This document shows positions 47,094 through 49,654 of a stretch of 64,000 bases of DNA, piece by piece. The stretch's first letter is position 1. Each line of letters opens with the position of its first letter. Both the position numbers and the translations under genes were made by a program. Under the pieces are notes generated by a model that had not been told where the DNA came from, ran no database searches, and saw only the letters and a list, made by a program, of their open reading frames with translations. The stretch is from assembly GCF_044324785.1 (NCBI RefSeq), contig NZ_CP172127.1; one strand, 5' to 3'. Source of the stretch: Escherichia coli. Lineage in GTDB: Bacteria > Pseudomonadota > Gammaproteobacteria > Enterobacterales > Enterobacteriaceae.

Positions 47094-47516
47094 TTACCGG
47101 TTCTGGTGCAGAAGCTGCAGGTGACGAAGAGTACGGACATCCTCCCGGGCCTGTTCGATACAGGGCAACAGTGCTGCCGAATCCGTTTTATCCTCATCGT
47201 TGTCAAAGATAATTCCCGATTCGCAGTCGATATTGTCCTGCAGCCACGCAATGAGGATATCCAGCGCTGTTTCAGTGGTTAATGGCATCACGCTCTGTAT
47301 CACTGTATTGTCTTCCGGCAACTGATGAGGGCTGGCAGAAGTCGCCGGTGTTTCGGTAGCGTCACGTTTATCCACCACGCGGAGTGAATAACCGTTTTCA
47401 GCGACCTTGTTAATCAGTTCAATGAGATTAACACCATCGACGTCAACGACAATTCGCCCCATGTTCAGCGCCTGCACGTTAACGCTGTCGGCTTCCAGCG
47501 TCAGGGCCAGTTTCAT
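47094..47516 (-). CDS. Hypothetical protein, YeeW-like position
   Basis: 140-aa acidic ORF immediately downstream of cbtA, overlapping its stop by 4 bp. Confidence 0.45.
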   Translation of the reverse strand: MKLALTLEADSVNVQALNMGRIVVDVDGVNLIELINKVAENGYSLRVVDKRDATETPATSASPHQLPEDNTVIQSVMPLTTETALDILIAWLQDNIDCESGIIFDNDEDKTDSAALLPCIEQAREDVRTLRHLQLLHQNR

Positions 47517-47890
47517 TGTTTCGCCTCCGGATGCTTACCCAGAGTAATGTTATTTACTGTTCGGTAATTGTCGCGGGTCATCAGGCCGGTCGCCCTGCGA
47601 GCCCGGAGGATATCGATGCTGTTTATTAACTGAGAGCGGGTACAGGCGCTGAATCCCGGCTGGTCGGTACGCACCAGCGCGTATTTTTCCACGAGAAAGT
47701 TCACCGCATCACACAGTGAAATGCCTGCCTCAATATGCTGCTCAATCACACGTTCATCAGCGAACGGTGTGTCATTCAGTGTGAGGCCGTAATGCTGGTC
47801 CAGCAGTCGGGTGAGCAGTGTATGCCAGATGGTGACGGGAGACGGGCAGCACGATGCCTCCCGTACGTGTGTGTCAGGTAATGTTTTCAT
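47513..47890 (-). CDS. cbtA: CbtA/YeeV-family toxin (cytoskeleton-targeting type IV toxin)
   Basis: From ATG 47890: MKTLPDTHVREASCCPSPVTIWHTLLTRLLDQHYGLTLNDTPFADERVIEQHIEAGI... matches the recalled YeeV/YkfI/YpjF family (paralogue not resolved). The track ORF start is 48 codons too far upstream. Confidence 0.85.
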   Translation of the reverse strand: MKTLPDTHVREASCCPSPVTIWHTLLTRLLDQHYGLTLNDTPFADERVIEQHIEAGISLCDAVNFLVEKYALVRTDQPGFSACTRSQLINSIDILRARRATGLMTRDNYRTVNNITLGKHPEAKQ

Positions 47891-47936
47891 CTTAAGTTCT
47901 CTGTAACTGGTAGTGCTAAAGGTGAGATATTCGGGG

Positions 47937-48311
47937 TTATGAGGTGGTTGCGGGTGCCAGTGTCGGATAAACAGCCATATAAACGTAACCACAGGAGCCG
48001 AGGGTGTCGGCTTCACAGGCCAGCCCCTTCGCATACAGTGTCACGGTATGCTGATGGCGGGGATTCAGTTCACCGCTGGTGAGCATGAGCTCCAGTTGTT
48101 TCATCAGCAGCGGAAAGGCCTGGTCCAGGTGGTACGCATCTGCATCGCTGAACAGGCCTCTGATACCGGCGCGGTCGGCAAGGTAATGCAACCGGTTACC
48201 CTCCTGCACCAGACGTGCCCCGAAACAGGGCGTCACGGTGCAGGGCAGCCCCCACCAGGGGCGGTCGTGATTGTCGTCGGGAAGTGTTGTCCCGGGGAGT
48301 GTGTCTGACAC
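47937..48311 (-). CDS. cbeA: CbeA/YeeU-family antitoxin
   Basis: 124 aa MSDTLPGTTLPDDNHDRPWWGLPCTVTPCFGARLVQEGNRLHYLADRAG..., immediately upstream of the toxin gene. Confidence 0.85.
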   Translation of the reverse strand: MSDTLPGTTLPDDNHDRPWWGLPCTVTPCFGARLVQEGNRLHYLADRAGIRGLFSDADAYHLDQAFPLLMKQLELMLTSGELNPRHQHTVTLYAKGLACEADTLGSCGYVYMAVYPTLAPATTS

Positions 48312-48386
48312 GATAAAATCCTCACAGAAAATCGGTTAAGAATGGTCCGGTAGTGGCGATAATTCTGCTCATCAGAATGCCCTGAC

Positions 48387-48608
48387 TCAGTTCAGGGTGA
48401 CACTCATCAGGCGGACATACGGGCCAAAACTGTCCTTACGGCGTTCTGCAAATACAGCCAGCACACCGGGAATATCCTGCACTTCACGACCGGTATACGC
48501 CTCAGCACTGCCGTGCCAGCGGTATTTACCGGTACAGAACGGAAAAAGACGGGATGTCGGATGTTGTTGGTGAATACGCATGGCTTCACCACGGGTGATG
48601 ATTTTCAT
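48387..48608 (-). CDS. yeeT: DUF987 protein (YeeT-like)
   Basis: 73 aa MKIITRGEAMRIHQQHPTSRLFPFCTGKYRWHG... recalled as YeeT. Confidence 0.7.
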   Translation of the reverse strand: MKIITRGEAMRIHQQHPTSRLFPFCTGKYRWHGSAEAYTGREVQDIPGVLAVFAERRKDSFGPYVRLMSVTLN

Positions 48609-48676
48609 GGTGTGATACCTCTGAAGACAGAAGATAAAAGTGAAAACAGGTGTGATGTGGTGGTGACGGTGACGGG

Positions 48677-49153
48677 TTAAAGCAGACCGTGTTCCGCAAA
48701 GGAGAAAACCTGGCTGCCACCGACTATCAGATGGTCCGGTACCCGGATATCCACCAGGCCCAGTGCCTGTACCAGACGTTCCGTGATAAGGCGGTCTGCC
48801 TTGCTGGGTGTGACTTCACCGGACGGGTGATTGTGTGCCAGCACCACGGCAGCGGCATTGTGGTACAGGGCGCGTTTAATCACTTCCCGGGGATGGACTT
48901 CCGTGCGGTTGATGGTGCCGGTGAAGAGGGTTTCACCGGCAATCAGCTGATTCTGGTTGTTCAGATACAGCACCCGGAATTCTTCACGCTCCAGTCCCGC
49001 CATGTTCAGAATCAGCCATTCCCGTGCCGCATGCGTGGAGGTGAAGGCCACGCCGGGTTCATGAAGATGGCGGTCCAGGGCTTTCAGGGCCCGCTGAATG
49101 AGGCTGCGCTCTCTGGTTGTCATTTCTCCGGGCAGAAAGGAAATCTGTTGCAT
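48677..49153 (-). CDS. RadC-like JAB-domain protein (YeeS/YfjY/YkfG family)
   Basis: 158 aa containing the JAMM-type motif HNHPSG. Confidence 0.8.
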   Translation of the reverse strand: MQQISFLPGEMTTRERSLIQRALKALDRHLHEPGVAFTSTHAAREWLILNMAGLEREEFRVLYLNNQNQLIAGETLFTGTINRTEVHPREVIKRALYHNAAAVVLAHNHPSGEVTPSKADRLITERLVQALGLVDIRVPDHLIVGGSQVFSFAEHGLL

Positions 49154-49168
49154 TGTTCCGGCCCCCTT

Positions 49169-49654
49169 TCAGTCAATGATGCGCATAATGGCGCTGCATT
49201 CCGGATGCTGCAGGGCGTAATCCCGCAGACGGTAATAATGAACCGTCATGGCATAACACTCCGTACGGCAGGCGTGATGACTGTACGTCATCAGACAGGC
49301 AGCAATGCCGGCGGCTTCCGGGCTCATTTCAGCGCGGTTACCGTTCATGGCATTGAACAGTACCCATGTTTCGTCATCATCATCATCCGGTTCGGGGGCC
49401 ATAAATGCCCCGCCGTTATTCAGTGTGTACAGATTCCAGATACCACCGCAGTAGTCTTCACACAGACGGTCCATCCAGCCGAAGACACGGGGCTCCAGGG
49501 TCACCCACTGTGGAATGAGGCCAAAGTGCTGTGGCCAGAAGCTGATGCACTGTTCATCAGGGACGGGAGTGGCAACCAGTTGAGACTGGTTATTCCCTGA
49601 TGCAGTAGTTACGGAAACAGAAGGTGTGGTGGAATTATGTGAAACGGTTGTCAT
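49169..49654 (-). CDS. Antirestriction protein (ArdB/KlcA-like, YfjX/YafX family)
   Basis: Start at ATG 49654 (MTTVSHNSTTPS...) preceded by AAGGA; acidic DDDDDE stretch; position between radC-like and DUF932 genes as in CP4-like islands. Confidence 0.65.
   Translation of the reverse strand: MTTVSHNSTTPSVSVTTASGNNQSQLVATPVPDEQCISFWPQHFGLIPQWVTLEPRVFGWMDRLCEDYCGGIWNLYTLNNGGAFMAPEPDDDDDETWVLFNAMNGNRAEMSPEAAGIAACLMTYSHHACRTECYAMTVHYYRLRDYALQHPECSAIMRIID

Follow-up and report, generated by a model that had tools for sequence, protein, structure and literature searches.

A CbtA/CbeA toxin-antitoxin and antirestriction module in a genomic-island block of Escherichia coli

Positions 47094 to 49654 of a 64,000-nucleotide (nt) stretch of Escherichia coli DNA (hereafter "the window") encode six genes on the minus strand, in the order antirestriction, RadC-like, DUF987 (yeeT), cbeA, cbtA, and yeeW-like, as read from the list of open reading frames (ORFs) for 44000-53000. 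Such blocks, with a CbtA/CbeA toxin-antitoxin pair, are a standard and already catalogued feature of E. coli genomic islands, and this one is real but ordinary. Judging from its sequence, it is very probably a copy of the conserved accessory block of transfer RNA (tRNA)-associated, P4-type E. coli islands, which has a type IV toxin-antitoxin system at its core and is represented in K-12 by the relics CP4-44, CP4-6, and CP4-57. DNA similar to positions 46000-51000 was detected in 5063 of 5426 complete E. coli genomes (~93%), at a median of 3 places in each and a maximum of 18. What the genes are, how they are ordered and bounded, and how far they are conserved were observed directly in this analysis. 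The features of the module are as follows (aa, amino acids; E-values are those of the Pfam matches).

49654..49169, minus strand: ArdB/KlcA-type antirestriction gene, 161 aa, ATG start; PF03230 Antirestrict, 2.4e-37
49153..48677, minus strand: RadC-like JAB/JAMM gene, 158 aa, ATG start; PF04002 RadC, 1.2e-44
48608..48387, minus strand: DUF987 gene (yeeT), 73 aa, ATG start; PF06174, 1.9e-39
48311..47937, minus strand: cbeA (yeeU-type) antitoxin gene, 124 aa, GTG start; PF06154 CbeA_antitoxin, 5.9e-54
47891..47936, minus strand: cbeA-cbtA spacer, 46 nt, an allele-specific variant (from alignment)
47890..47513, minus strand: cbtA (yeeV-type) toxin gene, 125 aa, ATG start; PF06755 CbtA_toxin, 4.9e-63
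47516..47094, minus strand: "yeeW-like" ORF, 140 aa, ATG start; PF25638 DUF5983_N, 8e-29

Module genes and the toxin-antitoxin pair

Across the six genes, Pfam E-values ranged from 8e-29 to 5e-63, far above the curated cut-offs and far beyond chance. The genes lie on a single strand with intergenic gaps of 15, 68, 75, and 46 nt down the run, followed by a 4-nt overlap. The module opens at the ATG of the antirestriction gene (49654) and closes at the final base of the yeeW-like stop codon (47094). For comparison we used the annotation made by NCBI's annotation pipeline (PGAP) on the collinear locus of strain TUM9803, which is 99.4% identical; it has the same two limits, and its gene calls are those made here. 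The best match to 46000-51000 among complete RefSeq E. coli genomes was 99.4% identical, and the junction with kpsF was 100% identical in several. A tblastn search with the K-12 paralogues found no second copy of the module in the window, where a single copy was seen. The original prediction had named these six gene families, their order, and their strand, all of which are borne out by Pfam, by BLASTP comparisons with the K-12 paralogues, by sequence matches in PDB, and by PGAP.

The antirestriction protein scored 127.4 bits against PF03230 (cut-off, 25), and its PDB matches were 2wj9, which was deposited as an "intergenic-region protein" (2.1e-97), and KlcA, 2kmg (6.3e-19); PGAP likewise names it an antirestriction protein. 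PHROGs families exist for most of the module proteins, including an anti-restriction family matched at 2.3e-61. The RadC-like protein scored 151.5 bits against PF04002 (cut-off, 22.1) and 149.8 bits against TIGR00608 (cut-off, 133.85), and matched PDB entry 2qlc (4e-25). Its sequence HNHPSGEVTPSKAD fits the HxHx7Sx2D metal-binding motif, which is intact. The gene does not include the N-terminal part of full-length RadC: the match to NF000642 reached 159.8 bits, below the cut-off of 180, and covered profile positions 88-211 only. RadC models were the only ones matched in the NCBIfam scan. LfgB, the CP4-57 paralogue of this protein, is reported to be a protease (PMC10846083).

The pair at the center of the module can be assigned to the CbtA/CbeA family. 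CbtA scored 210.5 bits against PF06755 (cut-off, 25), with residues 1-112 covering positions 1-112 of the 112-position profile, and CbeA scored 181.3 bits against PF06154 (cut-off, 27). CbeA also matched PDB entries 2inw (3.6e-79) and 2h28 (YeeU; 2.3e-78), as well as 2ea9 and 2jn7 (~1e-41 each), whereas no solved structure related to CbtA was found (best E-value, 0.13). Alignment with the three K-12 pairs, which had been put forward as a check, gave the toxin 90% identity to K-12 CbtA (YeeV), 61% to YkfI, and 65% to YpjF, and the antitoxin 96% identity to K-12 CbeA (YeeU; over residues 1-117, the C-terminal tail having diverged), 64% to YafW, and 68% to YfjZ. The exact sequences of CbtA and of CbeA each occur on at least 1000 public contigs, already under those names.

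The cbtA gene lies directly downstream of cbeA on the same strand. The short spacer expected between them measures 46 nt and has diverged in sequence, the K-12 type being 42 nt longer; the 3' end of cbeA is also variant. In the literature, the spacer measures 88 nt in cbeA-cbtA and 20 nt in each of the pairs from CP4-6 and CP4-57 (PMC5371832).

The yeeW-like reading frame

The description of the last gene as yeeW-like holds in part. The relation to YeeW stands (84% identity to K-12 YeeW), but the ORF is a fusion of a DUF5983 N-domain with DUF957 and not a plain YeeW. In a single frame it joins the DUF5983 N-domain to DUF957/ANF00264 through a 27-aa linker, and its start overlaps the cbtA stop codon (ATGA, 4 nt). 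PF25638 covers residues 4-56 and is the only Pfam match; the C-terminal 65-83 aa gave nothing in Pfam even at E = 10, so the name DUF957 comes from PGAP, which divides the 140-aa ORF in two, a partial DUF5983 pseudogene followed by a DUF957 gene of 65 aa. The equation of DUF957 with AntiFam ANF00264 is taken from the description in a 2026 preprint (10.64898/2026.06.09.728211). An AlphaFold2 model of the fused ORF, built from a shallow 11-sequence alignment, was unusable (mean predicted local distance difference test [pLDDT] score, 39.4; predicted template modeling [pTM] score, 0.26).

The origin of the fusion can be read from a full-length locus, that of P19_598, where DUF5983 is 162 aa long and ends in TAA, and DUF957 begins 11 nt further on in another frame. 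Alignment (L005:3595-4292) showed that the window is missing ~275 bp of the full-length locus, comprising most of the DUF5983 C-domain, and that the two genes have thereby become one 140-aa frame. K-12 yeeW has the identical junction, plus a stop codon and a second deletion. The preprint noted single-protein, split, and separate arrangements of DUF5983 and ANF00264 and proposed a programmed frameshift (10.64898/2026.06.09.728211). The missing ~275 bp explains the single ORF found here, which argues against a programmed frameshift for this arrangement.

The segment spanning the fusion junction was found in 3113 of the 5426 complete E. coli genomes, in ~990 of them at an identity of at least 90%; the remainder are probably of the K-12 yeeW type. 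The full-length DUF5983 C-domain is present in 3737 of the same 5426 genomes. The exact fused protein occurs on 45 contigs and belongs to a 518-member cluster. Six of seven alleles, diverged by up to 10% in DNA, keep the fused ORF intact at 140 aa, and the pooled pairwise ratio of nonsynonymous to synonymous substitution rates (dN/dS) was 0.24 overall and 0.14 in the DUF957 part, a rough estimate from six sequences. From these comparisons the fused ORF appears intact and constrained and does not look like fresh debris. One could postulate that it is a functional third component of the CbtA/CbeA system, for example a modulator or second antidote, and that K-12 yeeW is its degraded descendant; we regard this as rather unlikely.

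Island context, proposed function, and alternatives

The conserved block extends beyond the six genes. In the direction of transcription it comprises a GTPase gene, an IsrC-like RNA, Ag43, DUF905, DUF932, the six genes, and DUF4942, after which come an IS110 remnant and kpsF. The additional features, from upstream to downstream, are the following.

54177..55049, minus strand: YeeP/YkfA-type GTPase gene, which opens the block; "GTPase family protein" in PGAP, with weak PADLOC matches of the LeoBC/LeoA GTPase type
53823..54059, minus strand: IsrC-like (Rfam IS102) RNA; RF00124, 64.8 bits against a gathering score of 46
50958..53804, minus strand: Ag43/Cah autotransporter adhesin gene; a long ORF, named from PGAP on the collinear 99.4% identical locus
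50654..50887, minus strand: DUF905 gene (YkfF-like); PF06006, 2.7e-27; 59% identity to YkfF; start taken from PGAP
49745..50563, minus strand: DUF932 gene (YafZ/YfjQ-like), upstream of the six genes; 272 aa; PF06067, 4.7e-52; ~74% identity to YafZ and YfjQ
47040..47066, minus strand: terminator-like hairpin after the yeeW-like ORF; an 11-bp stem followed by a T run, a pattern match only
46167..47009, minus strand: DUF4942 gene, the usual last gene of the module; 280 aa; PF13708, 1.2e-65; called by PGAP
45654..45836, minus strand: IS110-family transposase remnant between DUF4942 and kpsF; a PGAP pseudogene

The IsrC-like RNA lies directly upstream of the Ag43 gene, and K-12 isrC is placed equally before flu. 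The DUF4942 protein also matches a PHROGs DNA-methyltransferase family (3.6e-15). Between 45000 and 51200, the sole Rfam match at E ≤ 0.1 was below threshold and is taken as chance (P9, 23.6 bits against a gathering score of 43), and a repeat scan returned just short imperfect matches in two or three copies, which are likewise taken as chance. A full-length match to the Rfam C0719 small RNA lies elsewhere in the window (10627-10848, minus strand; 294 bits).

The block adjoins kpsF, with which the capsule locus begins, and this copy lies at the end of an island next to kps. The junction of DUF4942, the IS110 remnant, and kpsF, where the island end meets the capsule locus (45654-45836 and 43872-44891), was covered to at least 80% in 1478 complete E. 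coli genomes. Within the capsule side of the window, the G+C content falls to 30-40% between ~30000 and 38000, compared with ~50-56% around it, and a JUMPstart element lies at the edge of this stretch (30543-30581); the stretch resembles region 2, the serotype-specific part, of a group 2 kps capsule cluster. In TUM9803, the island runs ~20 kb past the point corresponding to the end of the window, to a tyrosine recombinase and an annotated tRNA. Beside the island integrase of that strain, PGAP calls a "tRNA-Ser" of 78 nt (L006:23244-23321); ARAGORN found no tRNA in the whole 33-kb locus.

We infer toxicity, targets, neutralization, antirestriction, protease activity, and operon structure from homologues. 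In K-12, CbtA makes independent contacts with the H6/H7 loop of FtsZ and with the flat face of MreB, and both division and elongation are blocked (PMC5624674). By analogy, the CbtA of the window would bind FtsZ and probably MreB, blocking division and elongation, and CbeA, encoded 46 nt upstream, would counteract it. Following the published K-12 model, CbeA would act on the FtsZ and MreB polymers and would not sequester the toxin, an expectation drawn solely from its 96% identity to K-12 CbeA. The ArdB-type antirestriction protein, the RadC-like JAMM metalloprotease, DUF987, and the toxin-antitoxin pair are probably encoded in one transcription unit, as are the CP4-57 paralogues yfjXY-ypjJ-yfjZF, which have been described as one operon (PMC10846083). 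A consensus scan placed terminator-like hairpins (50632-50603 and 47066-47040) on either side of the DUF932-to-DUF957 run. Such a unit would help a newly acquired island to evade type I restriction and then to resist loss.

The gene assignments themselves are contradicted by nothing; the following observations weigh against the wider interpretation. None of the nine module proteins scanned matched a PADLOC defence model. No tRNA gene was found in the window, and PGAP lists no integrase in the collinear stretch of TUM9803, so that "CP4-like" and "prophage" are labels by analogy only. In a promoter scan, sites were no more numerous than in shuffled sequence, and none lay immediately ahead of the unit; the scan is uninformative, and the operon structure is therefore argued from analogy. 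The CbtA allele itself also departs from that of K-12 at its N terminus. Residues 28-118 match K-12 CbtA completely, but 12 of the 13 differences fall within residues 6-27, among them Cys15 (codon 47846-47848), which is shared with YkfI and YpjF, where K-12 CbtA has Arg15; in K-12 CbtA, the R15C change specifically abolishes the interaction with MreB and gives filaments (PMC5624674).

The alternative that survives best follows from this last point. It accepts the toxin-antitoxin pair and proposes that the Cys15 toxin binds FtsZ and not MreB, in which case it would produce filaments and not lemon-shaped cells. The engineered R15C effect in K-12 implies that natural alleles may differ in target range, and C15 stands here in an otherwise K-12-type protein. 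Binding to FtsZ would be expected under both interpretations: F65 is present (residues 61-65 are DAVNF), and F65S abolishes FtsZ binding in CbtA, YpjF, and YkfI (PMC5624674). However, YkfI and YpjF carry C15 naturally, C15R has no effect on either, and YpjF with C15 still bound MreB in two-hybrid assays, although an interaction between YkfI and MreB was apparently not detected (PMC5624674). In addition, the eleven further changes in residues 6-27 could compensate, and the N-terminal variant is common, the P19_598 allele starting alike and the exact sequence recurring on as many contigs as given above. Since Cys15 is shared with YkfI and YpjF and R15 is not family-wide, membership in the CbtA family is unaffected. 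We consider loss of MreB targeting possible but, on balance, doubtful.

A second alternative to a working toxin-antitoxin and antirestriction unit is that the module is a decaying relic, its genes intact by chance and now silent or nonfunctional passengers of an old island. In keeping with this, only a remnant is left of the adjoining IS110 gene, the C-domain of the yeeW-like gene is gone, and the K-12 copies decay stepwise, with yeeW and yeeP truncated and yeeR replacing upstream genes. The comparison with TUM9803 may point the same way: over 46000-51000 there are 32 differences from the window, all in two clusters (48865-49412 and 50330-50354) that cover the 5' half of radC, the antirestriction gene, and part of DUF932, while the toxin-antitoxin pair and the yeeW-like ORF have none. 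Because the differences sit in two short patches, they suggest recombination or gene conversion between paralogous island copies. Nevertheless, apart from the fused yeeW-like ORF, no ORF in the run from DUF932 to DUF4942 is shortened relative to its Pfam profile, and even the fused one has a dN/dS of 0.24 among alleles; identical proteins turn up on hundreds to thousands of contigs; and expression and phenotypes are on record for the K-12 paralogues (PMC5371832; PMC10846083). We therefore judge decay to be improbable.

The remaining question concerns the toxin start. A 173-aa ORF (48034..47513) has an open frame and an ATG, but there is practically no chance that it is a real toxin gene with an N-terminal extension: the extra 48 codons match no Pfam family and share 98 nt with cbeA in a different frame, the same upstream frame encodes unrelated peptides in other alleles and is broken by stop codons in K-12, the PF06755 profile begins at the internal methionine (47890) and not at 48034, and PGAP uses the short form, as do the full-length toxin-annotated members listed in a public protein cluster (124-125 aa). 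The original prediction had called this ORF over-extended and placed the true start at 47890, and both points were confirmed; the PGAP start is equivalent, and the resulting 125-aa protein begins MKTLP, where K-12 CbtA, YkfI, and YpjF begin MKTLP or MNTLP. The spurious frame arises because the spacer variant of this allele has no stop codon in the toxin frame.

The module was already known, and the window contributes a further example of this toxin-antitoxin and antirestriction block, which is near-universal in E. coli. Its importance is small beyond correct annotation, where use of the start at 47890 avoids a mis-annotated 173-aa protein. A few small points are refined as well: the yeeW/DUF957 ORF is a fusion, the toxin is a C15 allele, the spacer is specific to this allele, and the module reaches further than the six genes; none of this alters the assessment. 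Two questions arise: whether a Cys15 CbtA in a K-12-like background targets MreB, and whether the DUF5983(N)-DUF957 fusion, which is widespread, has a toxin-linked role.

Comparison with K-12 elements and full-length islands

We compared the window with the annotated CP4-44, CP4-6, and CP4-57 regions of K-12, using BLASTP for the proteins. The original prediction described the six genes as the conserved module of these three elements. The families and their order are indeed shared, but the six-gene set is a composite, as no one K-12 element has all six, and the copy in the window is thus more complete than any of the K-12 relics. Protein identities to the window were as follows.

CP4-44: RadC YeeS, 97%; DUF987 YeeT, 100%; CbeA, 96%; CbtA, 90%; YeeW, 84%
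CP4-6: antirestriction YafX, 64%; RadC YkfG, 82%; DUF987 YkfH, 66%; CbeA YafW, 64%; CbtA YkfI, 61%; yeeW-like, none annotated
CP4-57: antirestriction LfgA/YfjX, 69%; RadC LfgB/YfjY, 78%; DUF987 YpjJ, 64%; CbeA YfjZ, 68%; CbtA YpjF, 65%; yeeW-like, none annotated

CP4-44 is the closest of the three. Like the window, it has the radC-like, DUF987, cbeA, cbtA, and yeeW genes in the same order and on the same strand, with Ag43 and isrC upstream, and the junction that truncates DUF5983 is the same in K-12 yeeW. It differs in that yeeR occupies the place of DUF905, DUF932, and the antirestriction gene, as well as of the first 10 radC codons; in that its spacer is 88 nt long, compared with 46 nt; and in that its yeeW is broken, whereas the window has an intact 140-aa ORF. 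The two toxins differ in residues 6-27, including R15 in K-12 and C15 in the window.

CP4-57 (lfgABCDE, that is, yfjX-yfjY-ypjJ-yfjZ-ypjF) and CP4-6 (yafX-ykfG-ykfH-yafW-ykfI) have the same five-gene order from antirestriction gene to toxin as the window, and both also have DUF932 and the GTPase further upstream. Their proteins are more distant (61-82% identity), with antitoxins of 105 aa, toxins of 109-113 aa, and a 20-nt spacer (PMC5371832), and in neither is a yeeW-like, DUF957, or DUF4942 gene annotated after the toxin.

The full-length module is annotated in many E. coli genomes; that of strain P19_598, which lies next to cadC, resembles the window over a longer run, with Ag43, DUF932, antirestriction, RadC, DUF987, antitoxin, toxin, DUF5983, DUF957, and DUF4942 genes all on one strand. 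There, DUF5983 retains its C-domain and DUF957 occupies a separate frame, whereas the window is ~275 bp shorter and has the two fused.

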